The notes under the pieces: model-generated
Seen by the model: the letters and a program-made list of their open reading frames with translations, nothing else
The model's database searches: none
What the model was told of the DNA's origin: nothing
NCBI GenBank assembly: GCA_964405545.1
Contig: CAYOOH010000002.1
Coordinates: 1-32,511, forward strand
Origin: an uncultured Candidatus Saccharimonadales bacterium
GTDB lineage: Bacteria > Patescibacteriota > Saccharimonadia > UBA4664
Direction: 5' to 3'
DNA length: 32,511 nt
Translations under genes and position numbers: made by a program
In this document: one piece after another, positions 5,395-29,692 of the stretch
How the letters are laid out: each line of letters opens with the position of its first letter
Numbering within the stretch: position 1 is the first letter of the stretch

Positions 5395-5434
5395 CTGAAG
5401 TCCTTTCGTTTAATGTTAATTTGGATCTTAGTAC

Positions 5435-5450
5435 CGGGCCCGAGGGCCCG
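5435..5450 (-). promoter_or_regulatory. All-GC intercistronic hairpin upstream of the 195-aa module protein gene
   Basis: CGGGCC CUCG GGCCCG (minus sense) lies in the 64-nt spacer between 5459 and 5394. Confidence 0.35.
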
Positions 5451-5458
5451 CGCTCTGG

Positions 5459-5947
5459 CTAGTTCGACGAGTTATCCGAATAGCTTGAGCTAGCACTAAA
5501 GACATTGGTGCTTGAGAAGCTCGTCGACGTTCCATGGTCGGTCGAGCTGAAAATCTGCGTTGAGTTCCAGCTATTACCATCATTAGACTGGACGTCCACC
5601 TTCAGGTCATTACCATTCTGATTCGAAGAAACGCTAGAGTCGTCCCGAGAACTAGCCGAAATGGTCGTTTGGCCAGCCGAGACATGCACCTTGGCCTTAC
5701 CGGGAGACAACTCCATAGTCGCCTCACCGTCCGGGCCGACTACAACGCGCCGACCATTAACCATCACCTGAGGCGTCGGACTTGGTGATGCCTCGTGAGC
5801 CGACACCGAAGTAGTGTTGACGGCCGACGGAGACGCGGGCGAGCCCGACTCGGCCATACTCACTGCCGCCACTGCCAATGTCAACGGCACCGCAAGCAAC
5901 AATTGGGGACCTAGCTTCTTGATCTGTTTCGAACGTGCTTCATTCAT
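5459..5947 (-). CDS. Secreted Ser/Thr-rich protein (162 aa), unknown function
   Basis: N-terminal signal peptide KKLGPQLLLAVPLTLAVAAVSMA and a Ser-rich C-terminal half. The start lies 2 nt after the stop of the upstream gene, so it belongs to the same operon. Confidence 0.6.
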   Translation of the reverse strand: MNEARSKQIKKLGPQLLLAVPLTLAVAAVSMAESGSPASPSAVNTTSVSAHEASPSPTPQVMVNGRRVVVGPDGEATMELSPGKAKVHVSAGQTTISASSRDDSSVSSNQNGNDLKVDVQSNDGNSWNSTQIFSSTDHGTSTSFSSTNVFSASSSYSDNSSN

Positions 5948-5949
5948 AA

Positions 5950-7765: not shown

Positions 7766-10294
7766 CTATGACTCAGCCCCAACCTCAATCTCGGCGATCT
7801 CAGCCTCACCCACTAGCGCAACCGACGCCACCTTGTCACCCTCAGTCATTCGCATCACCCGCACGCCTTGAGTTGCCCGACCAATCAGCGAGATGTCACT
7901 CAACGCCATCCGAATCACTTGCCCCTGAGTTGATACCACTACCACCTCGGCGCTAGCCTCCTCAATCGCTCGTACATCCACTGTCTTGCCGGTCTTAGTC
8001 GTCACCACACCCGCCTTAATTCCCACTCCGCCCCGAGCATGAGTCGCAAACTGATCTACCTTAGTCCGCTTGCCATACCCATTCTCCATTACCACCAACA
8101 TCTCCATACCCGCCCGCACCACATCCATGCCCACTACCACGTCCCCCGTCCGCAGGCGAATCCCCCGCACCCCTCGCGTCGCTCGGCCCATCGGCCGAAC
8201 CTCACTCTCCCGGAACCGAATCGCCTGAGCCAACGCTGTCGAGATAATAACCTCGTCCTTGCCGCTCGTCAGCTTCACCCATTTTAGCTCATCCCCAGCG
8301 TCGAGCTTAATGGCAATCAGGCCATTCGCTCGAACGTTGGCATAATCGCTCAAGGAAGTTTTCTTAACCGTTCCCAACTTTGTAGCCATAAACAAATACA
8401 AATGATCAGTCTTAGAGTCAAATGTCACAAGCGACGTCACCTTCTCCCCTTGACCCAACTGAAGTAAGTTAACCACTGCCTGGCCCTTGGCCGTCCGCGA
8501 TGCCGCCGGGATCTCATACACCTTCTGCCGAAACACCCGGCCCTTATTGGTAAAAAACAGCATAAAATCATGGTTCTGCGTCAGCACCAAATGCTCCACC
8601 ACATCTTCTTCCTTGGTGGTCATGCCCATAATACCTTTACCACCCCGGCCTTGGCTCTTGTAGGTATTAGCCGGAATACGCTTGATATAGTTGCCAGTCG
8701 TCAAAGTCACAATCACTTGCTCGTTCGGCACCAGCTCCTCTTCCGAGAATTTACCTAGTTCATTGCCGACAATCTGGGTCCGGCGAGCATCCCCGTACCG
8801 AGCCTTAAGCTCCTCCAGCTCTTCACGAATGACCCGCAGGATCTCACTCTCGCTGGCCAAAATCTTCTCCAGCTCCGCAATCAGTTTGAGAAGCTCGGCC
8901 AGCTCATCCTCGATTTTCTTGCGCTCAAGACCAGCCAGCGTCCGCAATTGCATAGCCAAAATAGCCCGAGCCTGCAATTCACTAAACGAGAACCGCTCCA
9001 TCAAATTAAGCCGAGCTTCGTCCGTGGTCTGCGACGCCCGAATTGTCTTAATAACTTCATCGATATGGTCAAGCGCAGTCTTAAGTCCCTCCAAAATATG
9101 CGCCCGCTCCTTAGCCTTGCGCAGCTCAAACTCGATCCGCCGTCGCACCACGATCTGCCGATGCTGCAAATACTCGCGCAGCATCATCTCAAGACTCAGA
9201 ACACGCGGCTGACGGCCCTTATCTACCAATGCCAGCATGTTGACATGGAAGGCTGTCTGAAGCGGCGTCATCTTAAACAACTGATTTAAGACCTTGTTCG
9301 GATACGAGTCCCGCTTAAGCTCGATAACAATCCGCACCCCTCCACTTCGACTCGAGCTCTCATCCCGCAAATCATGAATCCCTACAATCCGCTTGTCGTG
9401 AACCAGCTCGGCAATCTTCTCAACCAGCGTCGCTTTATTGACCGCATACGGAATCTCCGTTACCACAATCCGCGATACGCCCTTTTTATCCTCCTCGATC
9501 TCTGCCACCGCCCGCACGACAATGCTGCCCTTACCCGTTCCATAAGCTTGGCGGATCGAGTCGGTCCCAAAAATCACACCCCCTGTTGGAAAATCTGGCC
9601 CTTTAATGTGCTTCATGAGGTCAGTCAGCGTCGCCTCGGGATTATCAATCAACTCCACAACGCCGTCCACGAGCTCAGTCAAATTGTGCGGCGGAATATT
9701 GGTCGCCATACCCACCGCGATTCCCACCTGACCGTTCAACAGCAGGTTAGGTAACTTAGCCGGCAGCACCACCGGCTCCCGCTTAGTTCCGTCATAGTTA
9801 GGCCGAAAATCTACCGTCTCTTTTTCGATATCATTGAGCAGTTCCTCGGCAATCGTCTGCATTCGAGCTTCCGTATAACGCATAGCCGCCGGCGGGTCGC
9901 CATCCAGCGAACCAAAGTTCCCCTGGCCGTCCACCAATGGGTAACGCATCGAAAAGTCCTGAGCTAGCCGCGCCATCGCATCATAAATCGCCGCGTCGCC
10001 GTGCGGGTGATAGTTACCCATCACATCTCCCACCACGCTCGCACTCTTGCGGTACTTGGCGCTATGACGCAAACCCTGCGAATTCATAACATGGAGAATC
10101 CGACGATGAACCGGCTTTAGGCCATCTCGAGCATCCGGCAGCGCCCGCGACACAATCACGCTCATGGCGTAAGCCAAATAGCTGGTCTCCATTTCGTACT
10201 CAAGTTTCTGCAGCCGCACCGTCCCGATCTCAGTCCGAAGTTCTTCGGGCTCCTCCGCCGGCTGTTCGATAATGTCTAGTGATTGATCGTCCAT
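7766..10294 (-). CDS. gyrA: DNA gyrase subunit A
   Basis: 842 aa. Motifs are [25 protein letters not shown], the catalytic-Tyr region AAMRYTEAR, and the GyrA-box QGRGGKG in the C-terminal domain, which favours gyrase over ParC. The gene lies 15 nt downstream of gyrB. Confidence 0.97.
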
Positions 10295-10309: not shown

Positions 10310-12541
<2,232 letters not shown>

Positions 12542-12544
12542 CTA

Positions 12545-14017
12545 ATGTTTCCCAAAATCGTCTCTCGACTTTCCTTATCGCCATCCGCCCTCTCGGATAT
12601 GGCCTTTTACGCTCGGCGACTCAAGCAAGAATCGGTCACGCGCGCCTTTTCCGCCGTCGCTGCCGTCCTCATCATTGGTCTGCAATTTGCCGTCGTTGCC
12701 GCTCCACCCACGCCCACCAACGCCGCCTCCTCTAGCGACATTATCTACGGCGGCTTCACCTCCAAAGCCGATTTGCTCAACCGCTACGATGCCAGCACCG
12801 AGCTCAAAGCCCTCTACACCTACTTCGGTATCTCTCGCCAAGACCTCGCCAACACCCAATCCGCCCAAATCAATTCCCGCGACCATAGCCTCAACTCACT
12901 TGGCCGCGTCCAGCATGCGTCCAGTGATCAAGAAGTAGTAGTTGGCACCTACCACTACTGGGCGCGTTACCTCTACCAGTTTGACACCGGCTCCAATATC
13001 CAAACCGGTTCCTACTACAATGTTCTCCAAGGCAAACGAGCCAGCGACGGCAGCTACTTTGCCGTCATATTTCACTGCGGCAATCTAGTGTTCAAGAAAC
13101 TCCCACCCAAGCCAACACCCCCGCCACCGCCCAAGCCCTCCCCATCCCCGTCTCCCTCACCATCGCCCACCCCCAATACCGTCGCCTGCCTCAAACTAAC
13201 CGGCAGCCCCACCCAAGGCGAGATCCCGCTCACCGTCACCGTCACCGGCCAAGGCAAAGCCACCGGCCAAACCATCGACCAATACCAATTCAACTTTGGT
13301 GACAGCACCATAACAGAGCAGCCGAGCGCCACCACCACCCACACCTACACCAAGGCCGGCACCTATACCGTTGTGCTTAAGATCAGGGGATCCAAGGGAA
13401 CCGTTTCGCCCCTTGCCGCCGCCTGCACTCTCACTATCAAGCCCACTACTCCACCAGCCGCTTTTACTAAATCAAAATCCGCTCTCAACACCACTCAGAC
13501 CATCGACGCCACCACCGCTCCCGCCCATGCCGGCGACATCATTCGCTATAGCCTCACCACCAAGAACATCGGCGGCACGGCCCAAGACTACACCGTCGTT
13601 GAGCATATCGAGGACATCCTCGAGTACGCCGACGTCACCGACCCAACCGACGCCGTCATTAAGGACGGGGTCATGACCTGGCCAGCCGTTTCCATCGCCC
13701 CCGGCAAATCACTCATCAAAACCTTCACCGTCAAAATTAAGGATCCCATCCCGGCCACCCCTGTCGGTGTCTCGGACAAATTCTCCTACGACCTGCGCAT
13801 GGACAACGTCTACGGCAACGACGTCCGTATTACCCTCGAGCCACCCCTGGCTAAACAAGTCGAAGGCGCCAGCACCGTCATGCCCGCCACTGGCCCCAGT
13901 ACCTCCAGTTTTATCGTCATCGTCGTAGTCAGCCTCTGCCTCTACTTTTACTTCCGCAACCGTCAGCTAGCAACCGAAGTCAAGCTGCTACGCGGCCATT
14001 ATCAAGGAGCCCTCTAA
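12545..14017 (+). CDS. Cell-surface protein with an N-terminal TM, a Pro/Ser linker, a PKD-like domain, a DUF11/CARDB-like repeat and an LPXTG-like (MPATG) sorting signal
   Basis: TM AFSAVAAVLIIGLQFAVVAA and a linker PPKPTPPPPPKPSPSPSPSPSPTP. PKD-like signature IPLTVTVTGQG..YQFNFGDST..HTYTKAGTYTVVLKIRG. DUF11-like signature AGDIIRYSLTTKNIGGTAQDYTVVEHI. MPATG (13880-13894) is followed by FIVIVVVSLCLYFYF and RNRQ. The tracked start is GTG 12539. ATG 12545 is preferred because it sits 7 nt after TGTTACAAT. Confidence 0.75.
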   Translation: MFPKIVSRLSLSPSALSDMAFYARRLKQESVTRAFSAVAAVLIIGLQFAVVAAPPTPTNAASSSDIIYGGFTSKADLLNRYDASTELKALYTYFGISRQDLANTQSAQINSRDHSLNSLGRVQHASSDQEVVVGTYHYWARYLYQFDTGSNIQTGSYYNVLQGKRASDGSYFAVIFHCGNLVFKKLPPKPTPPPPPKPSPSPSPSPSPTPNTVACLKLTGSPTQGEIPLTVTVTGQGKATGQTIDQYQFNFGDSTITEQPSATTTHTYTKAGTYTVVLKIRGSKGTVSPLAAACTLTIKPTTPPAAFTKSKSALNTTQTIDATTAPAHAGDIIRYSLTTKNIGGTAQDYTVVEHIEDILEYADVTDPTDAVIKDGVMTWPAVSIAPGKSLIKTFTVKIKDPIPATPVGVSDKFSYDLRMDNVYGNDVRITLEPPLAKQVEGASTVMPATGPSTSSFIVIVVVSLCLYFYFRNRQLATEVKLLRGHYQGAL

Positions 14018-14577
14018 TGTCCGCTGAACGCCAAGCCGAGCACGTCAACCCACACCAAGCCGAACGCCATCGCGCCGAGCTCCAAGAACTTGGTAACAAA
14101 CAGCTCGAACAACTCCGCCAGTCCACAAATCTCGAAACCAACCCCGACCGGCCCGAGGACCGCGCCGAAGCCGCCCGCGAGATTATAGCCAAGCATGAGG
14201 CCCCACCTCCAGCCCCCGAGGCCGAGGTTACCGCACCCCCCGTCCGCCATCCCATTCTCAACCTCAAGCTCAATTACGCCCAAACCCTCGCCAGCCTCCA
14301 GCGCCAACTGCGACCGGCCAGCCGAACCTTTAGCAAGATTATCCACACACCCATTGTTGAATCCGTCAGCACTGCCCTTGAGTCCACGGTCGCGCGACCC
14401 TCAGTCCTGCTTGGCGCCAGCTGGGCAGCCCTCATCGTAGGTGGCGGCTTCTACCTGACCGCCCGCCACTACGGCTACAGTCTATCCGGCTCCGAAATGC
14501 TCCTGTCGTTTATCTTTGGCGCCCTTCTCGGCCTGGCCGGCGAGACCCTCTTGCGTAGTCTCAAGCGCCGTCAATAA
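14017..14577 (+). CDS. Small membrane protein (186 aa), charged or coiled N-terminal half and two C-terminal TM segments, unknown function
   Basis: The start overlaps the upstream stop (TAATG at 14015-14019), implying translational coupling. TM segments are VLLGASWAALIVGGGFYL and MLLSFIFGALLGLAG. Confidence 0.6.
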   Translation: MSAERQAEHVNPHQAERHRAELQELGNKQLEQLRQSTNLETNPDRPEDRAEAAREIIAKHEAPPPAPEAEVTAPPVRHPILNLKLNYAQTLASLQRQLRPASRTFSKIIHTPIVESVSTALESTVARPSVLLGASWAALIVGGGFYLTARHYGYSLSGSEMLLSFIFGALLGLAGETLLRSLKRRQ

Positions 14578-14627: not shown

Positions 14628-17600
14628 CTACTCCCCAATAATTACATTACCTCGCTCATCTACAAACACCTCGCCCGGAGCCAACTTCTTGGGCTGCTCT
14701 ATTCTTGGCGCATCTACATTCGCCGCCGGCCCCTCGCTCGTCGGCATAATCAGCGTACCCGTCAAAGCCCCCGCCTCCTCCTGAGCTTCCGTGGGACTAT
14801 TATGAATCTCCTCCTGGGTGCTCTCAATCTGCTCAGCTGGCTTATCGGGTAATCGCTTATGCCGGACATGCGTCTCAACCGGTTTCATGTCTTCGACCGG
14901 AGCAGAATCGGAAACCACCGCCGCCACTCCCTCCGCGGCCACCGGCCCCAAATTGGACAAACGATCGCGCTTGGCCTGCGCTACATCAGAAACAGCTAAC
15001 GATTCGGCAGGCGGTAGGCCACCGTCCTCCTGCACCGGTAGCGGCACCTCGGCCAAAGCCGGCGCCAAAACCCCGGCCGAACCCGCCGGCTTAGGCGCCG
15101 CTATGGCCCCCACAGGCGCAGAGGTCGACTCACGCACAGTCGCCGGTAAGGGTGACAAAACCGGCTCACGTGCGGTCGCCGGCGCCCACGTAGCCACCGG
15201 TGCCGACGCCGGGCCGGCCAACACCCCACCCTGCGGTTCCAAAACTGCCACCGGCCTAGACACGTCGACCGGCCTCGCCGCCTCAACCCCCGGCTGCGCC
15301 AAGCCGGCCGGAGCCATGGGGACGGGGGCAAGCGGTAGCGTTGGCATTGGCGGTGGTGGTGCAGGCTGAGGAACCGAAACCGGCTCCAGCCTTGACCGAG
15401 AAGGAGGCATTACCGGTGCTACCGGCTGCGGCAAGACTGACGCCCGACCATTCGACGGCAACAACGACATGCTCAATAAGTCATCAATCTGTCGCTCCGT
15501 GTCTTCGACCGGACCAGATGCACCCCCCAAAGGCACAGCCGACACGCTTATCCCCGATGCCCCCCTGTCATTCTCAGTCGTCGACCCACCGGCAATCGGA
15601 GCCGTCGCGCCCCGATCAGGCTCCATTCCAGACTGCACTGACGCCGCCCCCTGCTGCTCAACAGACCTACCCACCGGAGGAGCTGCCAAAACCGCCGGCT
15701 CGACCGCGGCCAAACCAACCGCCGGCACTGCTCCACCCAACACATCAATACCAGCGTAAGGATCACCAGGTAACGGCTGAGCAACGCCCCCACCCATACC
15801 CATAGCACCACCACCCACAGCGCCGCCATTCACCGCTGGCTCACTCGTCGGCCTTGGCGCCGGCATACCCAACACATCGATCCCCGCGTAAGGATCCCCT
15901 GGCAGCGGTGCCGCCCCCGCAACCATCGCGCTCCCATCGGCACCAGACTCACCCCCGGCTGGCACTCCAACTCCGGCCCCACTCCCGCGACTGCCGCTCA
16001 TAGCCGAATCAACCGCAACCGGAGCCTGCCGCGGCGGTCTGCCCCCGGTAATATCCCGAAAAGACAGCGTACCCGGTGCCGGAGGAACAGCCGCAGCCGC
16101 AACAGCCGGCGCCACCCCCGCCGTCGCCGCTCCGGGCATTGCAGCCGCCCCAGGCATCGGCCCGACCATCGCTCCCGGCCCGACGGCCGCCCCAGGCATC
16201 GGCCCCACCGCCCGCGCCATGCTAGGGGGCAAATCCACCGGCGGCGCCCCGATCGGCGGCGGCATCATCGCCATCTGAGGCAAGCTCGCCGCCGAACCCG
16301 CAACACTACCACTCCCCAAAGCCGTATCCGCCCCAGGCGCCGCATAACCTCCCGCCGCCCCAGACACAGGTACCGCCGGCCAAGTTCCCGCCACCGCCCC
16401 CACCCCCGGACCAACCTGAGTGCTAGGTGCAGCCGCAACCCCACCGCCCGCCATTCCTGCACCCCCAGGGGCCATCCCCCCCACCGAAGCAAAATCTGCG
16501 CCCGGCACACCCGAGGCACCCGCTGCGACAACCGCGCCATTCGCCGTATTACCCCAGCTTGCGCCCCCAGCAGCCGGCGGCACCATTGCCGCAGTGGCTG
16601 GCGCTGTACCACTAGCCCCTACCACACCCGCTCCGTTAACCGCACCACTACCACCAACTCCAGTCGCCCCTACCGCCGAGCCGCCATTCATCGCCGACCC
16701 ACTCATCCCCCCGCTGCCGCCCAACGCCGTCGCCCTCGCTCCAGCCGGCGCCATACCACCAGACGCCACGTCACCAGTTCCACTCACATTCGGCGCCCCC
16801 ACGCCGCTCCCGGCCCCACTAGCCCCCGGCCCTCCCGCCGGCCCGCTCGCCCCTCCTGCTCCCGGCCCACTCACGCTTGACCCCGCGCCACCAGCCGCTC
16901 CCGGTGCCACCGGCGTCGATAGCTTTGGCGCTGGCGTTCCCGGCGCTCGACCCGTAAATCGCTCCACAATATCGGCTTCCACCACCGACTTCGCCCGGCC
17001 AAACTTAGCAGCGCTCAACTGCTTAATCGCTACCCCCAGCTCCGCATTGGCACCCGCAATCGGCGCCGAATCTTTAATCGTAAACGGCTGCGACGGCAGC
17101 CCTCCAATCATCAGTCGCATAGCTGCATTAAAGTTAGGCAAATTCATCAAATCCGACGCATCAAACACGGGCGCAAACTGCTTTACCATAAACTCGGCAT
17201 CCTCCGGCCCCATCCGGTGCGCTACAATCGTCCCAATATTGCCAAACACCGCATCCCGAATCTGCTGGCTCAACTGACCAATAAACTGGTTGGCTACAAT
17301 CAAGTTCAGTCGGTATTTCCGGGCCTCGCTCAAAATACTGGCAAAACTATCCGTCGAAAAATTCTGAAACTCATCCACATACAAACAAAAATCCGCCCGT
17401 TGGTCCTCCGGCACCTCCGCCCGGCTCATCGCTGCCGCCTGGAACTTGATCACAAAAATCATACCCAACAGCTGCGAGTTCAGCTCGCCAATCCGGCCCT
17501 TACTCAAGTTCACGATCAAAATCTTCTTCTGATCCATAATGTCGCGAATATTAAAAGCCGACTTAGTCTGGCCGATAATATTGCGCATCATCTCGTTGTT

Positions 17601-19382
17601 CTGGAACGCCCCAAACTTACTCACAAACCAGCCCAGCATCTCGCTCTTGTGGTAATCGCTCGTCTGGCCCATCTCTTTGGTCCAAAAATCAATCACCGTC
17701 GGATCCTTCAAGTACTTAAACTTCTTCTTTAAGTACTCCGTATCGGTAAACACTTTCGGAATCTCAATAAACGTCGCCCCATTCGGATCGCTCATCAACG
17801 TCAGTGCCGCATTCCGATACCAATGCTCATACCGCGGCCCAATAATGCCCGTATGCCCCGGGTCATACAGCTTGTACAGCATATTAATCGTCTCTTGAAC
17901 CAAGAAATCCTTCTGCGCCGGATCCGTAAACTCAAACAAGTTCAGCCCGAGCGGGTACTCCATGTCCGACGGATTAAAGTACACCACATCCTCCGCCCGC
18001 TCCTTTGGCACCATACTCAAAAGCTTCTCGGCGCTATCCCCATGCGGATCAATAAAAGCAAACCCATTGCCGGCTCTCATATCCTGGACTACCAAATTCT
18101 CCAGCATCGTCGACTTACCCGTACCCGTCTGGCCCAAAATATAGGTATGTCGCCGCCGATCCTCAGGACTTAGCCGGATCTCTTTTTGCACCCCCCGGAA
18201 CTCATTATGACCAAACAATAACCCCGTCGCCGGCAACTGGACCGGCCCGTCCACCTGCTTGCTCTGCAGCCGCTCTACACTGGCACTGGGCGTAAACTGC
18301 GAATCCGGCAAATGAAACAACGTCGCCAGCTCCACGCTATTTAAGACATTACTCTTGAGCTCCGGCGGAAAAAACCGAAAGATAAAAGCCGTCACCAGCC
18401 CTTGCACGTCCAGCGCCGGCAAGAACTTAAACCCATTCACACCCGGCGCCTCAAACAGCGCAAAAGCCGTCGCAATATCCCGCAACAGCTGCTGACTCCG
18501 CACCACCGACCCCGTCGATACCACCACCCGAACCAACACCTCAAACCCCGGATGCTTTGTCTTCTCCTCGATCGCCTCCACCTCGGCCAGCTCCAGATTA
18601 GACACCTCCTTGCCACCTGTCCGCGCCTGCTCCTCCTGTCGCCGCTGCTCCGGCGACTTAACAGCCGCCTTAACCAAATCGCCAGCCGTAAACGCCAAAC
18701 TCTCATGCCGCCCCTTGCGCTTAGAATCAGCCACCTTAACCGACCGCTTCGTCCATTTCGGGTCGGCTGGCCTCAGCATAATCTGGACCGCGGCCCCATC
18801 CTGCTTATCCAACGCCGCAATCGTCGTTAACAGCGCCTCCATCGGATCGCGCTCCAGCTTAGCGTAGGTCGCAATCGGGTAGGCACTCTCGGCCCGCAGC
18901 ACCATCTCGCCCCCCAACGTGGCCGCCAGTCGGCCTTCCTGGTTAAAGATATTGTGGTCCTCCACCTCCTCCAGGCGCGCCCCCGGATAAGCCGTCACCA
19001 CCGCCTTCTTCACGACGCTCACCAGCGCCACCGGTACCGCCACAAAGAAATGCACCACGCCTTCAATTGCAATCAACTCCAACGCCACATGCCGCTGGCC
19101 ATAAAAATTACTCTTAAAACCCTCAACAGCCGTACCGGCCAACAGATTGTACAGCACCTCAGCCTGCGACGTCTTCTCGCGCATCACCTCCCGGATATCA
19201 CGCGACCCGGCGGCCGTATCCGAGCTCGGCGGGGGCAAATGGATGAGCACCGGCACCATCTTGAGTCCCCGCTCAATTGCCTTGGCCCGCCGCAGCTTCC
19301 GCCGATACGTCACAAAAGCCACCACCCCCAACCCGCCGGCTAGGCCAAAAAACACTACAAAAACCAGTATAATACCGCTCAC
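14628..19382 (-). CDS. Giant (1584 aa) membrane-anchored VirD4/TraD/TraG-like (type IV coupling-protein-like) P-loop ATPase fused to a Gly/Ala/Pro-rich low-complexity C-terminal region of about 750 aa
   Basis: N-terminal TM IILVFVVFFGLAGGLGVVAFV followed by YRRKLRRAK. Walker A YILGQTGTGKST is at aa 417-425 (nt 18108-18134). Walker B FCLYVDEFQNF is at nt 17358-17384. LNLIVANQFIGQLSQQIRDAVFGNIGTIVAHRMG resembles the Q..QL region of coupling proteins. From about aa 811 onward the sequence is GAGGASGPAGGPGASGAGSG-type. The start is GTG. Confidence 0.8.
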   Translation of the reverse strand: MSGIILVFVVFFGLAGGLGVVAFVTYRRKLRRAKAIERGLKMVPVLIHLPPPSSDTAAGSRDIREVMREKTSQAEVLYNLLAGTAVEGFKSNFYGQRHVALELIAIEGVVHFFVAVPVALVSVVKKAVVTAYPGARLEEVEDHNIFNQEGRLAATLGGEMVLRAESAYPIATYAKLERDPMEALLTTIAALDKQDGAAVQIMLRPADPKWTKRSVKVADSKRKGRHESLAFTAGDLVKAAVKSPEQRRQEEQARTGGKEVSNLELAEVEAIEEKTKHPGFEVLVRVVVSTGSVVRSQQLLRDIATAFALFEAPGVNGFKFLPALDVQGLVTAFIFRFFPPELKSNVLNSVELATLFHLPDSQFTPSASVERLQSKQVDGPVQLPATGLLFGHNEFRGVQKEIRLSPEDRRRHTYILGQTGTGKSTMLENLVVQDMRAGNGFAFIDPHGDSAEKLLSMVPKERAEDVVYFNPSDMEYPLGLNLFEFTDPAQKDFLVQETINMLYKLYDPGHTGIIGPRYEHWYRNAALTLMSDPNGATFIEIPKVFTDTEYLKKKFKYLKDPTVIDFWTKEMGQTSDYHKSEMLGWFVSKFGAFQNNEMMRNIIGQTKSAFNIRDIMDQKKILIVNLSKGRIGELNSQLLGMIFVIKFQAAAMSRAEVPEDQRADFCLYVDEFQNFSTDSFASILSEARKYRLNLIVANQFIGQLSQQIRDAVFGNIGTIVAHRMGPEDAEFMVKQFAPVFDASDLMNLPNFNAAMRLMIGGLPSQPFTIKDSAPIAGANAELGVAIKQLSAAKFGRAKSVVEADIVERFTGRAPGTPAPKLSTPVAPGAAGGAGSSVSGPGAGGASGPAGGPGASGAGSGVGAPNVSGTGDVASGGMAPAGARATALGGSGGMSGSAMNGGSAVGATGVGGSGAVNGAGVVGASGTAPATAAMVPPAAGGASWGNTANGAVVAAGASGVPGADFASVGGMAPGGAGMAGGGVAAAPSTQVGPGVGAVAGTWPAVPVSGAAGGYAAPGADTALGSGSVAGSAASLPQMAMMPPPIGAPPVDLPPSMARAVGPMPGAAVGPGAMVGPMPGAAAMPGAATAGVAPAVAAAAVPPAPGTLSFRDITGGRPPRQAPVAVDSAMSGSRGSGAGVGVPAGGESGADGSAMVAGAAPLPGDPYAGIDVLGMPAPRPTSEPAVNGGAVGGGAMGMGGGVAQPLPGDPYAGIDVLGGAVPAVGLAAVEPAVLAAPPVGRSVEQQGAASVQSGMEPDRGATAPIAGGSTTENDRGASGISVSAVPLGGASGPVEDTERQIDDLLSMSLLPSNGRASVLPQPVAPVMPPSRSRLEPVSVPQPAPPPPMPTLPLAPVPMAPAGLAQPGVEAARPVDVSRPVAVLEPQGGVLAGPASAPVATWAPATAREPVLSPLPATVRESTSAPVGAIAAPKPAGSAGVLAPALAEVPLPVQEDGGLPPAESLAVSDVAQAKRDRLSNLGPVAAEGVAAVVSDSAPVEDMKPVETHVRHKRLPDKPAEQIESTQEEIHNSPTEAQEEAGALTGTLIMPTSEGPAANVDAPRIEQPKKLAPGEVFVDERGNVIIGE
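14703..16952 (-). other. Compositionally biased (Gly/Ala/Pro/Val/Ser) region of the giant ATPase gene, predicted to be intrinsically disordered
   Basis: Read directly from the translation, about aa 811-1560. The many long antisense and alternate-frame ORFs in the track here (for example 16420..17277 +) are by-products of this bias. Confidence 0.8.
15736..15908 (-). repeat. Duplicated 14-aa motif PLPGDPYAGIDVLG inside the ATPase low-complexity tail
   Basis: The copies are encoded at 15736-15776 and 15868-15908, 132 nt (44 aa) apart. The peptide is identical in both, and the DNA differs at several synonymous positions. Confidence 0.85.
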
Positions 19383-19391
19383 TTACGGCTA

Positions 19392-19400
19392 ATTATAGCA
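19392..19400 (-). promoter_or_regulatory. Extended -10 box (TGCTATAAT) 9 nt upstream of GTG 19382 of the giant ATPase
   Basis: The minus strand reads TGCTATAAT TAGCCGTAA GTG. Confidence 0.45.
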
Positions 19401-19457
19401 CTTGTGCTCGCCTCAAGATATCGCAATACCCACCGTTATAGTCCGCAAAACAACTTA

Positions 19458-19487
19458 GCGGCCGGTCCCAAAAAAGGACCGACCGCC
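19458..19487 (-). terminator. Intrinsic terminator after the 19498..20046 gene
   Basis: The minus strand forms GGCGGUCGGUCC UUUUUU GGGACCGGCCGC, a stem of about 11-12 bp, followed by the U-rich stretch UAAGUUGUUUUG. Confidence 0.65.
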
Positions 19488-19497
19488 TCCATCTGTT

Positions 19498-20046
19498 CTA
19501 GCCCATAATGCTACTTGTGCCGATCACCAGCTGACAGGTAAAAACAAGTGACTGAAATTTCACCCCTGTCACAACGGTACCAGTCGGCCCATGGACAATA
19601 CGCCCGCTAACCCGCCTGGCCACCACCTGGATCTCAGCCACTGTGGTACCTGCCGGCACCAGACACATCAGAAGCCCCGGATGATAATCACTCATACCCC
19701 GCAGAGCATCAACCGCCAGCAGTCTGGGCGCCCCCGTCGAGTCAGTCCAATACTCGCTAGGATTGTCCGTCTGGTGCCATTCAGTCAGGTCAATAGCCCT
19801 GACTGAGGCAAAAATCGGATCGGCCGAGGTGGTAATCCAGCCCGGCACCGTCCGAAGCTTAACAAACCCGGTCGGACTCGGCATCGCAACAACCGTCGAA
19901 ACAACGGTGGGCCGCTCAGTCACAGAATACCGGTGAGTACTCCGAACCATGACCACCAAAAGAGCCGCATTCACAACCACCAACACCGCGACCACAGCGA
20001 GCAAGATCGTCGTTAGCCGTCGCCTGACAAAACTTCCCACATCCAT
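19498..20046 (-). CDS. Membrane-anchored hypothetical protein (182 aa)
   Basis: N-terminal RRRLTTILLAVVAVLVVVNAALLVVMV signal-anchor followed by a globular extracytoplasmic region. A strong hairpin terminator follows the gene. Confidence 0.6.
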   Translation of the reverse strand: MDVGSFVRRRLTTILLAVVAVLVVVNAALLVVMVRSTHRYSVTERPTVVSTVVAMPSPTGFVKLRTVPGWITTSADPIFASVRAIDLTEWHQTDNPSEYWTDSTGAPRLLAVDALRGMSDYHPGLLMCLVPAGTTVAEIQVVARRVSGRIVHGPTGTVVTGVKFQSLVFTCQLVIGTSSIMG

Positions 20047-20229
20047 CGATAACTCTTTTCGTAATCGAAGAATCCTCGGTTATCCCGAGAGGACCAACAA
20101 ACTCTAGTATTAATTTCGAAAAATTGCAAGAAAACCCCTCGGCTAACCACTTTGTCTGTCTATCTCTATTGACTAATTTAATAAAAAGATTCAAAATAAC
20201 TAAGTCCAAAATTACCCCTCCCCTAAGAG

Positions 20230-20610
20230 GTGTTAGCTGTGACCTTGACCCCAATCCGCAAGGCCCAAGCCAAGATCATGCTGGGCGCGGCCGCCCGCTT
20301 CCTTCTAGCCACGCTTCTCATAGCCCTCGGCACCAAGATCTTTCCCCAGAGCCAGAGTGTCCCAGTTACCATCCTTGCCATCGTTGCGAGCCTGATCGGT
20401 GGTGAGATCATCTTCTACTTCATAGTTCCAGATGCTCTCCGCCACCTCGAGCCAGTTGCCCCTAATCAGGTTGCGCCCCGGCGCCTCTCGCAGCTAGATT
20501 CCGCAACCGCTGCTCGCCTTAACCGAGCTCGTACTCTCGGGATCTTCGTCGGGGTAGCCCTCTTCCTGGCAACACAAACTCCCTACCTCATCCAGCTCTG
20601 GCAGCAATAG
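20230..20610 (+). CDS. Small integral membrane protein (about 125 aa, 3 TM), unknown function
   Basis: Hydrophobic segments FLLATLLIALG, VTILAIVASLIGGEIIFYFIV and LGIFVGVALFLA. AAGAGG lies 8 nt upstream of GTG 20239, the likely true start. A hairpin follows at 20625-20654. Confidence 0.55.
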   Translation: MLAVTLTPIRKAQAKIMLGAAARFLLATLLIALGTKIFPQSQSVPVTILAIVASLIGGEIIFYFIVPDALRHLEPVAPNQVAPRRLSQLDSATAARLNRARTLGIFVGVALFLATQTPYLIQLWQQ

Positions 20611-20624
20611 AATCCACGACCCCC

Positions 20625-20654
20625 GTCCGGCTCTTGCTCATGCAGGAGCCGGAC
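20625..20654. terminator. Hairpin between convergent genes (20230..20610 + and 20674..21153 -)
   Basis: GTCCGGCTC (20625-20633) pairs with GAGCCGGAC (20646-20654), giving a 9-bp GC-rich stem. The U-tract is weak. Confidence 0.55.
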
Positions 20655-20673
20655 AACTATTTGTAGGGTAAAC

Positions 20674-21489: not shown

Positions 21490-22911
21490 CTAATTATGCA
21501 CCCACACCGGCGTTCCCACCTCAGCCCAACCGTACAAAAACTCCGCCGCCGCATCCGGCAAGTTCACGCAGCCGTGCGACCCGCCGTAATAATAATCCGA
21601 ACCGCCAAACCTGCCGTTCCGCCACGAGGCATCATGCAACCCATACCCCAGATAAAACGGCATCCAATACTTAACCGGCACATCATATCCCTGACCCCTC
21701 AAGTGAGTATTGGTAGTTTTATAGTAAATCGAGAACAACCCCGTAACCGTTCCCAGGCGCGCCCCTGTCGCCCCCGACGTAACCGGCGCCTCATAAATCA
21801 CCTTGTGGTCCTGCCAAGCCCACAAATGCTGCTTACTTAAGTTCACCTCAATATATCGACCGTAATCAAGGCTAACCAAAGTAGTTGATATCGTCTTAAA
21901 CGGCACCACCCGACTTACAATCGTATACGTCAAAGGCCTCTGCTCACCCACCGCCGCCGTAATTGCCGCCGTAATACCATCCTGGTCAATCGCCATCCCA
22001 TCCACCCCCTCCCGTACCACCTGACTCACGCCGTCCTCAACGTTCACCTGCTCGTTAACCGGTGCCACGTTCAAAGCATCTGCCACATCCTGGACATAAT
22101 CCTTTAGCTCCGCCGAATCAATCTGCGGTACCAGCTTAAAAGCCAACCCATCCGGCTGCTTCAAAAACGCCAGCCACTGGCCAATCTGCGCTTTCGTCGG
22201 CGTAAACACCCGGTCGCCATACGTCAAAATAATCGGCGTGGCCATCAGTCGCTGAGCCTCTTCAATCGTCGGCCCCAGCGCCCGGCTCTGAATATCCGCT
22301 ACCTGCTCCCGGGGTCGCAGCGACAGCTTCCGACCAGCCGCCTGCTTGACATCATCCTCGATCAGCCGCTCCAAGCCAACCCGGTCAATCGTCCAGCCGC
22401 TCTTCTCCGGCACCGTCCTCAAACTACCGTCCTTCATGACAATTCCAGCATCAATCGGCGCCGTCCCCACCTTGCTAGACACCGTCGCCGCAAACCCGTT
22501 CAGCTGGGCTCGGTCCAAATGATAGCTCAACGGCAACACCTCTCGCCCCAACGGCGGCACCCACGACCCCCGACCAACCCCGTAAGCATTAGCCAGCGTT
22601 GCCTCCACGTCAAACCGCACCCCCAACTGCTCAGCCGTCAACACATAATGATCCCCGGCCACATCCAGCGGCAACCGGTAGCTAGCCGCCTGATCCGACA
22701 GCACCCCTCGAGCCCGCTCTAGCGTCAGTCCACCAATATCACGACCACCCGCTACAACCCCCGGCAACACCCGACCATCAAACCACGCCCCCATTGCCAA
22801 ATGACCGCCCAACACCACACACCCAAACATCGCCCCAATCGCCGCCACCCGCCGCAATGACGTATAGCCTGCGCTCCCGTGACGCACCGGATCCAGTTTC
22901 CACCTCAGCAT
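21490..22911 (-). CDS. L,D-transpeptidase (YkuD domain) with an N-terminal TM and a YoaR/VanW-like peptidoglycan-binding region
   Basis: The C-terminal catalytic domain contains GLHDASWR and GGSHGCVNLP (His/Cys of the YkuD active site). The N-terminal TM is AAIGAMFGCVVLGGHLAMGA. Confidence 0.88.
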   Translation of the reverse strand: MLRWKLDPVRHGSAGYTSLRRVAAIGAMFGCVVLGGHLAMGAWFDGRVLPGVVAGGRDIGGLTLERARGVLSDQAASYRLPLDVAGDHYVLTAEQLGVRFDVEATLANAYGVGRGSWVPPLGREVLPLSYHLDRAQLNGFAATVSSKVGTAPIDAGIVMKDGSLRTVPEKSGWTIDRVGLERLIEDDVKQAAGRKLSLRPREQVADIQSRALGPTIEEAQRLMATPIILTYGDRVFTPTKAQIGQWLAFLKQPDGLAFKLVPQIDSAELKDYVQDVADALNVAPVNEQVNVEDGVSQVVREGVDGMAIDQDGITAAITAAVGEQRPLTYTIVSRVVPFKTISTTLVSLDYGRYIEVNLSKQHLWAWQDHKVIYEAPVTSGATGARLGTVTGLFSIYYKTTNTHLRGQGYDVPVKYWMPFYLGYGLHDASWRNGRFGGSDYYYGGSHGCVNLPDAAAEFLYGWAEVGTPVWVHN

Positions 22912-22980: not shown

Positions 22981-25281
22981 CTAACGCCGTTTCGCCCCTA
23001 GTCGCCGCTCAAGCAGGCCAAAAACCCGCGCCTCGAGCTCACTCGCTTCCACCTCGGTCGGGGTCCGCTCCGGATGCGTCACCTCCAAGCGCAAAGTCAG
23101 CCCCTTATGGCCTTCCGGCAAATCGTCTCCATAATAATCACCCACAAACCCTGCCGTCTGCGGCGCCAGCACGTCCACGACCATCTGCCAGCTTACCGAC
23201 ACCGGCACCACCACCGTCAAATCGCGCTTAATACTGGGGAATCGCTCCACCCCACCAAATCGCCGCGTCCCACTTCGGTCCAGTAGGGTCTGCATATCAA
23301 CCTCCACATAAGCCGCCTCCCCCGCCACCTTCAGCCTATCAAGTAGTTCAGGCCTCAACTGGCCAATCCGGCCCACCGCCATCCCCTCTAGCTTCACGAC
23401 ACCACCCCGTCCCGGAGCATACTCCGCCAAATCCGCCGGCTCCACCACCAACTCAACATTCAACTCGCGTCCCACCGCATCAAGCACCCCCTTAACCGCC
23501 CCGTACGCTCGCTCTGGCCGCCGCATCATCACCCCCAATCGCAATGGCTCGTTCGGCTGCTCACCGGCCTCCCGCCGCACAAACACCCCCGACAGTTCAT
23601 AAAAACCCAATACCTTTGCATACAGCCGATTCCGGGCCAATACCGCCACATGACTTGGCAGCAATGAACTACGCAAATAAGCCTGTTCTGCGGACAGCGG
23701 ATTCTTAACCTTCAAATGGTCCTTTAGCACCAGCCCCAGCTCCTCCAGTTGCTCCGCCGCCACAAACGAGTATGTCATAACCTCAAACAGCCCAGCTCCG
23801 TACAGCAAATCCCGCACCATCCGCCGTTTGGCTCGCTGCCGGTCAAACGCCACCACCCGCGGCCGCCACGCCGGAATCGTCGCCGGCACCTTGTCATAGC
23901 CTACTACGCGCACAACCTCTTCTATCAAATCCTCAGCCAATCGAACATCAGGCCGCCACCACGGCACCTCCGGTACCACAATCGTCACCTCATCACCCGT
24001 CACCTCAAATCCCAATCGACTCAAGGCCTCCACAGCCTGCTTACGGCTCATTCCAAACCCCACCAGCCGTACCAGCCGCTCCATCGCCAGCTCAATCGAT
24101 ACCCGCATCGGCTTCGCATTCTGCTGATCCGTCAAACCCACCAGCCGCCCGCCGGCCGTCATAGCCAACAATTCCAAGGCTCGACCCATGGCCACCGCCG
24201 GCAGTTGGACGGGCAGCCCCCGCTCAAACCGGGCGCTCGCCTCCGTCCGAATCCCGTGTCGCTTAGCCATCTTCCGCACAACAGCCGACTCAAACACCGC
24301 CGCCTCAAGCAGAATCTCTTTCGTCTCTGGGCCAACCTCAGTCGCCGCCCCTCCCATCACACCAGCCAGCCCAATCGGTCCTGTCTGGTCTGCAACTACC
24401 AAGTCCTCAGGCGTTAGTTTACGTTCTACCCCATCGAGCGTCACCAATCGTTCATCCATCCGAGCCATCCGCACCTCAACCGGCAACCTCACCTTGGCTG
24501 CGTCATAGGCGTGCATCGGCTGACCCTGCTCCAGCATCACATAATTAGTTACGTCCACTACCGGAGATACCGACCGCATCCCAGCCGCCTTCAATCGCGC
24601 CGCCATCACTGGGCTCACTGCCCCAGACTCAACCCCCACGCGAGCCAGCATAAACCGCGCCGCCGCACTCCCCTCGACCACCTCCGGCCCTTCACCGCTA
24701 GCTGATGCCGGATCAACCTGCCGCTTAAGCTTAGAACCCGTCATAGCTCCCACCTCGCGTGCCAAACCGACCATGCTAAGAACATCAAAACGATTAGCCG
24801 GGGTCTTTAGGTCAATGATTGTCTCTGCCGGATAAAGGTCGCACAACGCACTCCCCACCTCTACGCCATCGTCCAGTTCCAAAATGCCATCATGCTCAGA
24901 GCCCAAACCCAATTCACGCTCACTACACAGCATTCCCTCGCTCACTTCACCGCGCAACTTAGCCTTCTCGATCCGGTCTCCAGATGGCAGGACCGTCCCT
25001 ATATGGGCAACAGCCACTTTTAAGCCTTCACGAACATTAGGCGCCCCACACACAATATTCAAATCACCATCACCTATCGTAACGGACACTAATTTTAGTC
25101 GGTCTGCTCCCGGATGCTGAACAACTTTATTAACCAGGCCAACAACAATCTTTTTATCAAGTTCTTTAGAATAAATAACTTGTTCAATCTCCAATCCAGC
25201 CTTCTCTACTGTACGCTCCATCTCCTCATCGGATATTGTGCGACCTAAAAGCTCTCGGACCCAAGATGATAGTAACTTCAT
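22981..25281 (-). CDS. pheT: Phenylalanine--tRNA ligase beta subunit
   Basis: N-terminal tRNA-binding OB domain VVGLVNKVVQHPGADRLKLVSVTIGDG, followed by regions resembling B3/4, B5 and a C-terminal FDX-ACB domain. Start MKLLSSWVRELL (ATG 25281) overlaps the pheS stop (TAATG). The tracked ORF extends to 25317. Confidence 0.95.
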   Translation of the reverse strand: MKLLSSWVRELLGRTISDEEMERTVEKAGLEIEQVIYSKELDKKIVVGLVNKVVQHPGADRLKLVSVTIGDGDLNIVCGAPNVREGLKVAVAHIGTVLPSGDRIEKAKLRGEVSEGMLCSERELGLGSEHDGILELDDGVEVGSALCDLYPAETIIDLKTPANRFDVLSMVGLAREVGAMTGSKLKRQVDPASASGEGPEVVEGSAAARFMLARVGVESGAVSPVMAARLKAAGMRSVSPVVDVTNYVMLEQGQPMHAYDAAKVRLPVEVRMARMDERLVTLDGVERKLTPEDLVVADQTGPIGLAGVMGGAATEVGPETKEILLEAAVFESAVVRKMAKRHGIRTEASARFERGLPVQLPAVAMGRALELLAMTAGGRLVGLTDQQNAKPMRVSIELAMERLVRLVGFGMSRKQAVEALSRLGFEVTGDEVTIVVPEVPWWRPDVRLAEDLIEEVVRVVGYDKVPATIPAWRPRVVAFDRQRAKRRMVRDLLYGAGLFEVMTYSFVAAEQLEELGLVLKDHLKVKNPLSAEQAYLRSSLLPSHVAVLARNRLYAKVLGFYELSGVFVRREAGEQPNEPLRLGVMMRRPERAYGAVKGVLDAVGRELNVELVVEPADLAEYAPGRGGVVKLEGMAVGRIGQLRPELLDRLKVAGEAAYVEVDMQTLLDRSGTRRFGGVERFPSIKRDLTVVVPVSVSWQMVVDVLAPQTAGFVGDYYGDDLPEGHKGLTLRLEVTHPERTPTEVEASELEARVFGLLERRLGAKRR

Positions 25282-26306
25282 TAAAACCTCTCCAAAAACT
25301 TCATGTTCGGTCGCCAAAACTCGCGGACGTCTTCAACCCCATATTTAATAGTTGCGATTCGCTCCGGCCCAAATCCAAATGCAAATCCACTATAAATTGT
25401 CGGATCAATTCCGACGTTTTTAAGTACCTGGGGGTGAATCATCCCTGCTCCTCCCAGTTCTAGCCAACCCGTTGCGCCACACAGCCTGCAGTCAAGGTCC
25501 CCCACCCGACCAGTACCGCTACAAATGACACATGTTGCATCCATCTCAACACTCGGCTCCGTATAGGGGAAATAATTGGCCCGCAACCGCAGCCCTGCTC
25601 CTTCTCCCAATACACCTTTCAGCATCGCCTCGAGCGTACCTTTCAGGTCAGCCAAACTGATCCCCTCGTCCACCACCAGTCCCTCAATCTGATAAAAATT
25701 CCATGAATGCCGCGCGTCTTCGTCTTCGTTTCGGTAAACCTTACCCGGCGCAATAATCCGAATGGGCAAACTATCCCCATGCTCCATCATGTGCCGAATC
25801 TGGACCGACGAGGTGTGCGTCCGCGGTAGATGCGCCTCCTCCAAGTAGAACGTATCCTGCATATCCCGAGCCGGATGGTCCTTGCCCACCAACAACGCGT
25901 CAAAGTTATACCACTCCGTCTCTACCTCCGGTCCCTCGGCCACCTGATAGCCCATCTGCCAAAACAAATCAACCAGCTCATCCAATACCACACTCACCGG
26001 ATGACGATGCCCCACCCCAACCGGCAAACCCGGCGCCGTCACATCCAATCCCCCCGCTAGCCGATCCGCCACCTCGGCCCTCCGCAGCTCTTGCTCTCGA
26101 GCCGACAGCAAATTCTCCGCCCATACGCGCAGTGCATTAGCCTCCTGGCCCGCTAAACCGCGCTCGGCGGCTGGCAGCGTCCCAATCGCCTTCAGCTGAT
26201 CGGTAATTATCCCCTTGCGACCCAAATACGCCACCCTTAGACGCTCAAGATCGGACAGCGATACCGCTCCCTTTAGCTCCTTGCCTAATTCTTCTCTTAT
26301 GGCCAT
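25281..26306 (-). CDS. pheS: Phenylalanine--tRNA ligase alpha subunit
   Basis: 341 aa. Class II core motifs YFPYTEPSVEMD, GAGMIHPQVL and FAFGFGPERIA. Confidence 0.96.
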   Translation of the reverse strand: MAIREELGKELKGAVSLSDLERLRVAYLGRKGIITDQLKAIGTLPAAERGLAGQEANALRVWAENLLSAREQELRRAEVADRLAGGLDVTAPGLPVGVGHRHPVSVVLDELVDLFWQMGYQVAEGPEVETEWYNFDALLVGKDHPARDMQDTFYLEEAHLPRTHTSSVQIRHMMEHGDSLPIRIIAPGKVYRNEDEDARHSWNFYQIEGLVVDEGISLADLKGTLEAMLKGVLGEGAGLRLRANYFPYTEPSVEMDATCVICSGTGRVGDLDCRLCGATGWLELGGAGMIHPQVLKNVGIDPTIYSGFAFGFGPERIATIKYGVEDVREFWRPNMKFLERF

Positions 26307-29685: not shown

Positions 29686-29692
29686 ATATAGG

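Follow-up and report, generated by a model that had tools for sequence, protein, structure and literature searches.

An ATPase of 1584 amino acids (aa) is encoded in a 32,511-nt stretch of DNA from an uncultured Candidatus Saccharimonadales bacterium (contig CAYOOH010000002.1), the whole of which is called the window here. According to the list of open reading frames (ORFs), the gene has a GTG start and lies at 14628-19382 on the minus strand. It is an addition of extreme length to an already known, uncharacterised family of Saccharibacteria membrane ATPases. Judged from structure models, the core of the protein is best described as a VirB4-like N-terminal domain joined to a motor like that of type IV coupling proteins (T4CPs), behind a single membrane anchor. 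This core continues into a long tail, predicted to be disordered, which carries an ordered series of short motifs. By published data on the syntenic gene pair, the ATPase of the SEML1_0142 family and its small partner are essential in one cultivated species, Southlakia epibionticum.

We propose that the ATPase serves the Saccharibacteria type IV secretion system (T4SS), which is unlinked to it, chromosomal, essential and relaxase-less, and that the tail recruits partners; we consider the chances that this role is right or wrong to be about equal. Our interest is in the family more than in the copy of the window, because it joins an essential VirB4/VirD4-hybrid ATPase, an essential small partner and a motif-laden tail. 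Saccharibacteria, and the Candidate Phyla Radiation (CPR) to which they belong, depend on host bacteria and have an essential T4SS. The SEML1_0142 family is a concrete candidate for the missing coupling ATPase of this system, or else the sign of a separate essential machine.

Core domains and family spread

The assignment of the ATPase to the coupling-protein (TraD/TrwB/VirD4) type, which an earlier note on this DNA had made from the sequence, is supported by profile, sequence and fold comparisons. The Pfam model TrwB_AAD_bind scored above its cut-off (27.6 against 20.5 bits, only over aa 403-473), as did DUF87/HerA PF01935 (25.4 against 23.2 bits, only over aa 410-496), while TraG-D_C stayed below (14.8 against 22 bits). 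The best PDB sequence matches were DotL/IcmO and TrwB. In an AlphaFold2 (AF2) model of aa 1-811 (mean pLDDT 79), the ATPase part has the TrwB fold, with a TM-score of 0.61 (Foldseek against PDB: E 1e-12, TMt 0.58-0.62); Cagbeta, DotL and HerA also match, the latter with a TMt of about 0.5. Walker A (GQTGTGKST, aa 417-425, nt 18108-18134) and Walker B (LYVDEFQNF, aa 667-675, nt 17358-17384) are separated by an all-helical insert in the AF2 model (aa 488-617, nt 17532-17921), and IVANQ follows at aa 695-699. A RecA-type domain with both Walker motifs and a helical insert between them is also what characterises the T4CPs TrwB of R388, TraD of F, VirD4, Cagbeta and DotL/IcmO, and these proteins are the best matches of the ATPase part in both sequence and fold. 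They have, however, a two-helix membrane domain, whereas the window protein has one transmembrane (TM) helix and a domain of 350 aa that resembles VirB4.

This N-terminal domain, about 380 aa long in the earlier note and left without a name there, can be named: it is DUF8128 (PF26449), with a fold like that of the VirB4 N-terminal domain. The assignment comes from the precomputed annotation of almost all of the best 120 homologues of the N-terminal 811 aa; PF26449 was not among the matches in the Pfam scan of the window protein itself. A separate AF2 model of aa 36-385 (pLDDT 78.7, pTM 0.76) gave 14 Foldseek matches with E <= 0.001, all of them TrwK/VirB4 (E 7.5e-6 to 6.6e-4, TMq 0.39-0.46), and the next match had an E of 0.018. 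HerA has an N-terminal HAS barrel besides its central domain, and usually NurA or a defence protein as a partner; no HAS barrel was found in the AF2 model, where the domain matches VirB4 instead. When the model of aa 1-811 was compared with PDB, the best match over the full length was again TrwK/VirB4 of R388, with an E of 1e-14 and some 900 columns aligned. A kinship of the DUF8128 domain with VirB4 is thus probable, not proven, as the TM-scores are modest and come from predicted structures.

VirB4 (TrwK of R388) shares with the window protein the general layout, in which some 350-400 aa of N-terminal domain precede a RecA-type domain and the total comes to about 800 aa, and the fold match of the N-terminal domain is specific to VirB4. 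In contrast, the window protein fails the VirB4 sequence model (TIGR00929, 17.6 bits against a cut-off of 643), had no match to CagE_TrbE_VirB in the Pfam scan, and its ATPase domain is closer to the T4CPs. Saccharibacteria also have their own, separate and bona fide VirB4 in the T4SS cluster, SEML1_0008 in S. epibionticum. A VirB4-like fold combined with a T4CP-like motor bears on the kinship of these two families of T4SS ATPases.

The protein has a single membrane anchor. In the AF2 model, residues 2-40 form one long helix, and the TM segment in it is directly followed by the basic stretch YRRKLRRAK (aa 26-34). A single N-terminal anchor followed by basic residues would, by the positive-inside rule, place both the ATPase and the tail in the cytoplasm, in agreement with the prediction of the earlier note for the tail. 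The anchor, the basic stretch, both Walker motifs, IVANQ and the C-terminal peptide KKLAPGEVFVDERGNVIIGE are all found where the note had put them.

The family is large and centred on one group of bacteria. The N-terminal 811 aa match more than 6,500 proteins of Saccharimonadia/CPR at 60-85% identity; for the best 120, which belong to bins of Saccharimonadia and other CPR groups, identity is 61-85% along all 811 aa. Among species-representative genomes we found at least 576 relatives, nearly all in Saccharibacteria/Saccharimonadales, including the complete TM7i chromosome CP075337, and the ATPase family was present in every Saccharibacteria genome examined. Searched by itself against 1.84 billion representatives, the DUF8128 domain matched 1,413 clusters (50% identity). 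Distant DUF8128 proteins are about 810-860 aa long, have no long tail, and pass the models T4SS-DNA_transf PF02534 (46.5 bits), TrwB_AAD_bind PF10412 (45 bits) and TraG-D_C PF12696 over about 300 aa. We found no paper on DUF8128, PF26449, SEML1_0142 or SEML1_0141 in the literature.

The full-length architecture, minus the tail, occurs as well in proteins of Bacillus phages (phage G gp156, SPO1-like gp27.4, phrog_5156). Phrog_5156 matches over aa 75-807 (E 3e-78), and gp156 was the best structural match in BFVD (E 1.5e-47). These proteins differ from the window protein by the low identity (20-23%), the lack of a long disordered tail and their location in phage genomes. In Bacillus phage vB_BsuM-Goe10 (locus L087, 2563-8073), gp27.4 is a distant full-length homologue, found in SPO1-like phages, and the other products of its gene block are gp27.9, which is putatively actin-like, gp27.3, a 'plasmid replication-relaxation' protein, and a number of small membrane proteins.

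PADLOC returned only generic HerA/mad8 P-loop matches without partner genes, and the reading as an anti-phage defence ATPase of the HerA type was set aside.

Essentiality and possible role

The gene order around the ATPase is the same as that of SEML1_0141-0147 of S. epibionticum ML1, namely small gene, ATPase, DUF5353, DUF11, gyrB, gyrA and PAP2. In the transposon sequencing (Tn-seq) of this strain (Wang et al. 2023 supplementary tables, PMC10633639), the ATPase gene SEML1_0142, annotated as 'TraM recognition domain-containing protein', was called ES/ES/ES, and the hypothetical gene SEML1_0141 (420 nt) GD/ES/ES. The two following genes, SEML1_0143 (DUF5353) and SEML1_0144 (DUF11), were both NE, gyrB (SEML1_0145) was ES/ES/ES, and gyrA (SEML1_0146) and the PAP2 gene (SEML1_0147) were GD/ES/ES (PMC10633639). 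The window protein and SEML1_0142 share this neighbourhood and a P-loop domain at about aa 381-800. SEML1_0142 is 1019 aa long, which implies a tail of about 200 aa; compared by synteny and annotation, the tail in the window is about 3.5 times longer and Gly-rich, and the partner gene of the window has been displaced by an insertion of 1.3 kb.

Saccharibacteria have two coupling-protein-like paralogues with opposite Tn-seq calls, SEML1_0142 being essential and the second one, SEML1_0293 (TrwB_AAD_bind), being NE (PMC10633639). Quinonero-Coronel et al. remarked that the t4cp homologue of S. epibionticum is not essential (PMC12102498). By the Tn-seq table, this remark seems to fit SEML1_0293, not SEML1_0142.

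The essential T4SS cluster of S. epibionticum, SEML1_0006-0019, is without recognisable coupling and relaxase proteins (PMC10633639), and the T4SS is reported to be conserved throughout Saccharibacteria (PMC11665869). The T4SS is the most economical assignment for the ATPase, because this essential system would otherwise be without a coupling ATPase. We envisage that the ATPase would assemble into a membrane-bound ring, like TrwB, VirB4 and HerA, and that the small upstream protein of the SEML1_0141 family would act together with it. The cytoplasmic tail would form a long flexible arm, the motifs of which may capture cytoplasmic partners (clients or adaptors) and hand these over to the ATPase. 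The machine served would be the Saccharibacteria T4SS, whose own cluster has no coupling protein.

The distance to any T4SS gene is not in itself an anomaly. The earlier note had found no VirB4, VirB6, relaxase or pilin genes in the window, and our Pfam/NCBIfam scans likewise found none of these, nor other T4SS genes; judging by the records of its proteins, the window seems to span the entire contig of 32,511 nt, and this absence covers the contig only. The note had, however, treated the ATPase as an oddity on this account, calling it an orphan, and this part of its interpretation did not hold. VirD4-type homologues number 5,713 in 2,918 of 3,035 patescibacterial genomes, and only 148 of them are near virB4 (Quinonero-Coronel et al. 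2025, PMC12102498), so that being an orphan is the normal state. Unlike the T4CPs compared above, the window ATPase has no relaxase or T4SS genes nearby, neither on the contig nor in six homologous contexts; such linkage is not obligatory for T4CPs.

Several observations weigh against a role in the T4SS. Regarding the protein itself, the N-terminus, with its one TM helix and VirB4-like domain, is atypical for a T4CP, and the curated NCBIfam TraD/VirD4 cut-offs were missed by a wide margin, the best of the TraD models being SXT_TraD (40.6 bits against a cut-off of 366). Bacillus phages, although they lack a T4SS, encode full-length structural homologues, and therefore the ATPase module can work outside a secretion system. 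Regarding the genomic context, no T4SS gene was linked to the ATPase in the six homologous contexts with called genes, and no T4SS component was seen in 80 further loci, where the search was aimed only at the partner, DUF5353, DUF11, gyrB and pheT. Homologues of VirB3, VirB6 and VirB8 were not encoded beside the ATPase on the contig or in the homologous contexts read. T4CP-like genes are found in 2,918 patescibacterial genomes and VirB4 in 2,417 (PMC12102498). Regarding essentiality, orthology to SEML1_0142 would follow from identical synteny, the annotation and a class-wide single-copy pattern, and 11 Tn-seq insertions fall inside SEML1_0142 (PMC10633639). Should they be located in the tail, it would be dispensable for growth in culture. 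Finally, binding of partners by the tail motifs is a prediction from sequence.

Some of these observations also feed the strongest alternative, a stand-alone membrane ATPase that works with its small partner independently of the T4SS and does another essential job, with the tail as a partner hub. We regard this as somewhat less probable than a role in the T4SS, though it deserves serious weight. The job might be, for example, the transport or organisation of DNA or protein, either at the membrane when cells bud or divide or at the site of host contact. The alternative gains from the fact that linkage to virB4 was never encountered in the contexts read, where the synteny is instead locked with the partner and gyrB/gyrA, from the roughly 500 more patescibacterial genomes with T4CP-like genes than with VirB4, and from the same two-domain architecture in phage G gp156 and SPO1-like gp27.4. 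An exaptation was also explicitly left open by Quinonero-Coronel et al. (PMC12102498). On the other hand, the nearest characterised relatives in sequence and fold are all T4SS ATPases, the essential T4SS has no other candidate coupling ATPase, and the gyrBA synteny may be plain gene-order conservation within one class. One such job, the simple replacement of FtsK, is excluded, since a canonical and essential FtsK, SEML1_0096, is present in S. epibionticum. FtsK and SpoIIIE are, moreover, built differently: FtsK has a gamma domain and an N-terminus with four TM helices, whereas the window protein was below the cut-off of the FtsK model PF01580 (14.2 against 24 bits) and showed no gamma domain in the Pfam scan.

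In a bolder version, which is possible but which we consider rather unlikely, the DUF8128 ATPase and its small partner would form an unrecognised essential machine, a VirB4/VirD4 chimera independent of the T4SS cluster and with distant relatives in Bacillus phages. The hypervariable tail would serve as a multivalent scaffold, with motifs that organise partners specific to the lineage at the membrane. If an independent machine of this kind is true, the tails of 750-1200 aa in one clade would mean a larger set of partners or a longer reach.

The C-terminal tail

The 774-aa tail consists to a large part of few residues: alanine makes up 20%, glycine 17%, proline 14%, valine 10% and serine 8%. The earlier note had considered such a tail highly unusual for this ATPase family. 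This is not the case, as all 76 complete species-representative orthologues have a tail (minimum 83, median 168, maximum 1033 aa), and relatives reach up to 2006 aa. Neither the tail nor the orphan status is an anomaly, because both are the rule for the family. What sets the window protein apart is the length of its tail, which is in the top few per cent, and its Gly-rich spacers, as opposed to Pro/Ala-rich ones in relatives. Tails above 300 aa were present in only four of the 76 complete orthologues. Equally long tails occur in the closest relatives, L007 (1573 aa, core 84% identical) and L034 (1547 aa or more). In the closest clade, tails extend to about 1200 aa and show the same motifs in order, and the representative protein library contains members of 1694-2006 aa. 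To our knowledge, the tail in the window is far longer than any extension of a characterised T4CP.

Within the long-tail clade the spacers, which evolve fast, cannot be aligned, even where the core identity is 84-91%, yet the motifs that are present hold the same order. They start with PPPIGAPPV(D/E)L (one to three copies), LSxxDITGG and DPYAxI(D/N)(V/I)LG (none to two copies), continue with E(H/R)(E/Q)IDDLLS(V/M)SL, to which ERQIDDLLSMSLL of the window belongs, and GLPxAESLAxxDVAxA, and end with L(T/A)GxLIMPT and the terminal KLAxGEV(F/Y)VDxxGNVIIGE. More distant members carry PGExhxP motifs related to LTGTLIMPT, and many members with shorter tails have SFLD(D/E)WLAK(R/K), a motif present in 82 of the 203 sequences examined. 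This order is conserved among relatives whose spacers are otherwise unalignable, which supports on sequence grounds what the earlier note had suggested, namely that the islands are selected short linear interaction motifs in a disordered scaffold. Contrary to what would have refuted the note's reading by its own terms, the orthologues surveyed keep tail and motifs, and the contig carries no T4SS genes.

The motif PLPGDPYAGIDVLG is present in the window protein in two identical copies, 44 aa apart. As already noticed in the first reading, their DNA differs at synonymous sites: 7 of the 42 nt differ and all seven changes are synonymous, with a chance of about 6e-5 if about one quarter of random substitutions are assumed to be synonymous. 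The pattern DPYAxI(D/N)(V/I)L was found in two copies in L007, L034 and P0001 and in one copy in P0206, and the doubling is limited to the narrow clade of the window protein, L007, L034 and P0001. We infer that the PLPGDPYAGIDVLG pair is one docking motif in two copies, which would permit bivalent binding at a distance of 44 residues.

The C-terminal end was also found to be conserved family-wide, in line with the short, ordered-looking end described earlier. In the relatives most similar to the window protein the pattern is PGE(V/I)x(V/I)D(E/D)xGxV..G, and in most other Saccharibacteria species representatives it is xTIxIDxxGNL or xEVSIKLR. An end of the xIDxxG or IKLR type was matched by 60 of the 76 species-representative orthologues, and most of the others have visible variants of it. 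The alternating pattern of residues suggests that the terminal peptide may be a beta-hairpin.

C-terminal extensions recruit partners in known coupling proteins: TraD, which recruits the relaxosome, binds TraM, and DotL binds adaptor proteins. Our idea of the tail as a tether is drawn from these extensions, and a similar use in Saccharibacteria would be by analogy. The conserved tail peptides are ready baits for finding what the ATPase handles, and the motif-laden tail gives experiments direct access to the role of type IV secretion-like machinery in CPR bacteria.

A less generous explanation accepts a functional ATPase core and regards the very long tail as a mostly neutral low-complexity expansion, in which only the terminal peptide, with or without one or two of the motifs, matters. 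The wide range of tail lengths among orthologues, with 83 aa at one end, over 1000 aa at the other and a median of 168, would agree with this, as would the unalignable spacers at high core identity, the transposon insertions tolerated in SEML1_0142, and the Ala/Pro-rich stretches in other proteins of the contig (partner N-terminus, C-terminus of the penicillin-binding protein (PBP), and ORF 2464-4713). Nevertheless, we find it improbable, given that six motifs are kept in sequence and order across the long-tail clade, that the duplicated motif shows synonymous change only, and that none of the 76 complete orthologues is without a tail.

That a misassembly or frameshift fused an ATPase of about 810 aa to non-coding GC-rich DNA is hardly credible and already effectively refuted: long chance ORFs do arise in high-GC DNA, and other frames hold here ORFs of 154-285 aa, but the internal motifs and the in-frame C-terminal peptide are shared with the independent assemblies L007, L034, P0001 and P0204-P0210, the tail is without long exact repeats, and its G+C at third codon positions (GC3) is not raised. 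The tail frame is open through to the C-terminal peptide, which is conserved in frame in L007, L034 and P0204-P0210. G+C climbs to about 0.70 across the tail-coding stretch, whereas GC3 is 0.625 in the tail and 0.69 in the body. Since GC3 of the tail is not above that of the body, the high G+C comes from Gly, Ala and Pro codons and not from foreign DNA, which we reject as an origin of the tail together with an assembly artefact. No long exact DNA repeats were found in the tail, where repeats are limited to the motif pair, whose 42-nt copies have diverged, and to a second, likewise diverged tandem of 42 nt at 16128-16209. The latter tandem (period 42 nt, two copies, 82% matches) encodes VGPMPGAA-type repeats, which sit, in the sense of the protein, just downstream of the PPPIGAPPVDL motif.

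Gene neighbourhood and partner gene

The features of the ATPase gene and its neighbours are listed in Table 1.

Table 1. Positions of the ATPase gene, its domains and motifs, and neighbouring genes in the window; codes starting with L or P denote homologous loci and proteins.
Feature	Position	Strand	Basis
Whole gene: DUF8128 / coupling-protein-type ATPase with disordered C-terminal tail (predicted), 1584 aa	14628..19382	-	ORF list, homologues of N-terminal 811 aa
Single N-terminal TM helix, aa 4-25, then YRRKLRRAK	19308..19373	-	sequence; AF2 helix
DUF8128 domain, aa 36-385, VirB4-N-terminal-domain-like fold (predicted)	18228..19277	-	PF26449 on homologues; AF2 model; Foldseek
Coupling-protein-type P-loop ATPase domain, aa 386-800	16983..18227	-	Pfam, NCBIfam, PDB sequence matches, Foldseek
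Low-complexity C-terminal tail, predicted disordered, aa 811-1584, ordered series of short motifs	14631..16952	-	composition, GC3, alignment with L007, L034, P0001, P0204-P0210
Motif PPPIGAPPVDL, aa 1041-1051	16230..16262	-	1-3 copies in L034, P0001, P0204-P0210
Motif TLSFRDITGG, aa 1105-1114	16041..16070	-	LSxxDITGG in L007, L034, P0001, P0005, P0007, P0009, P0204, P0205, P0207, P0210
PLPGDPYAGIDVLG, first copy, aa 1159-1172	15867..15908	-	sequence
PLPGDPYAGIDVLG, second copy, aa 1203-1216	15735..15776	-	peptide identical to first copy
Motif ERQIDDLLSMSLL, aa 1296-1308	15459..15497	-	E(H/Q)xI(D/N)(D/E)LL in L007, L034, P0204, P0206, P0209, P0005, P0012
Motif LTGTLIMPT, aa 1540-1548	14739..14765	-	(T/P)GxLIMP(T/S) in L007, L034, five of P0204-P0210 (not P0208, P0210)
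C-terminal peptide KKLAPGEVFVDERGNVIIGE, aa 1565-1584, beta-hairpin-like	14631..14690	-	conserved at C-terminus of most full-length homologues
gyrA	7766-10294	-	Pfam
gyrB	10310-12511	-	Pfam
PKD/DUF11 (CLIPPER) surface protein, counterpart of SEML1_0144	12539..14017	+	Pfam; position conserved in homologous loci
Convergent 186-aa membrane protein, DUF5353-like, counterpart of SEML1_0143	14017..14577	+	aligns with convergent ~184-aa genes in L001-L006
Small partner gene, counterpart of SEML1_0141, called as 167 aa	20674..21195	-	alignment with genes upstream of ATPase elsewhere
L,D-transpeptidase	21490-22911	-	Pfam
pheT	22981-25317	-	Pfam
pheS	25281-26306	-	Pfam
Class-I tRNA synthetase, Trp/Tyr type	27580-28572	-	Pfam
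RmuC	28615-29721	-	Pfam
Class A PBP	29821-32109	+	Pfam

The six homologous contexts are arranged alike: a small gene (123-144 aa) comes first, then the ATPase, next a convergent gene for some 184 aa, and after it a DUF11/CLIPPER/PKD surface protein followed by gyrB and gyrA. The window contains all elements of this conserved neighbourhood, with the partner 1.3 kb upstream of the ATPase instead of adjoining it. In 79 of the 80 species-representative loci with enough upstream sequence, the partner was at most 400 nt upstream on the same strand; these loci include L007, the closest relative, where the gap is only 61 nt. In the window, the two genes are separated by an insertion of 1,291 nt (19383-20673) bounded by strong hairpins with 13-bp stems at 19457-19487 and 20625-20654. 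The insertion holds two ORFan-like ORFs, one of 182 aa with an N-terminal TM helix (19498-20046, minus strand) and a membrane-like one of 126 aa (20230-20610, plus strand). The former was considered as the conserved upstream partner and rejected, as it neither aligns with upstream genes elsewhere nor has a homologue among 5.8 billion proteins.

In the partner protein, the N-terminus is A/P-rich, while the C-terminal domain, DVDLIEPEWVSKAEQVVARHRGDPYAEEEAVEELQQDYLQKRYG, is conserved and can be aligned with the upstream genes elsewhere. Its family comprises 80 other proteins, all of them 'hypothetical' and without a Pfam domain. Two stretches of the C-terminal domain recall motifs of ATPase tails: IEPEWVSKAE resembles SFLD(D/E)WLAK(R/K) of the short-tail members, and GDPYAEEE resembles GDPYAGIDVLG of the window tail. 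From this resemblance, the tail motifs might mimic the partner or compete with it; a coincidence is possible as well.

The other neighbours with a Pfam match are all housekeeping or cell-envelope genes, and several further ORFs that were scanned, including the one at 4807-7586, had no family match. The PKD/DUF11 protein ends in MPATG followed by a TM helix and basic residues, similar to a sortase-type sorting signal, and there is an overlap between the stop of its gene and the start of the DUF5353-like one. The two genes adjoin the ATPase in most Saccharibacteria loci and are missing from a subset. Between 14577 and 14628, where the convergent genes end, scans for promoters and terminators found nothing.

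Low-complexity stretches rich in Pro, Ala and Glu occur elsewhere on the contig, in the ORF at 2464-4713 on the minus strand, in the PBP and in the partner. Weak Trypan_PARP matches were obtained for the first of these (749 aa) and for the C-terminus of the PBP, and in the partner it is the N-terminus that is A/P-rich. Extending proteins by low-complexity sequence may be common throughout this lineage. Almost all 1-kb windows have a negative GC skew, which accumulates to about -16 across 32 kb, and the minus strand carries most of the long ORFs. This pattern of skew and strand fits a contig from a single replichore with a strong gene-strand bias.

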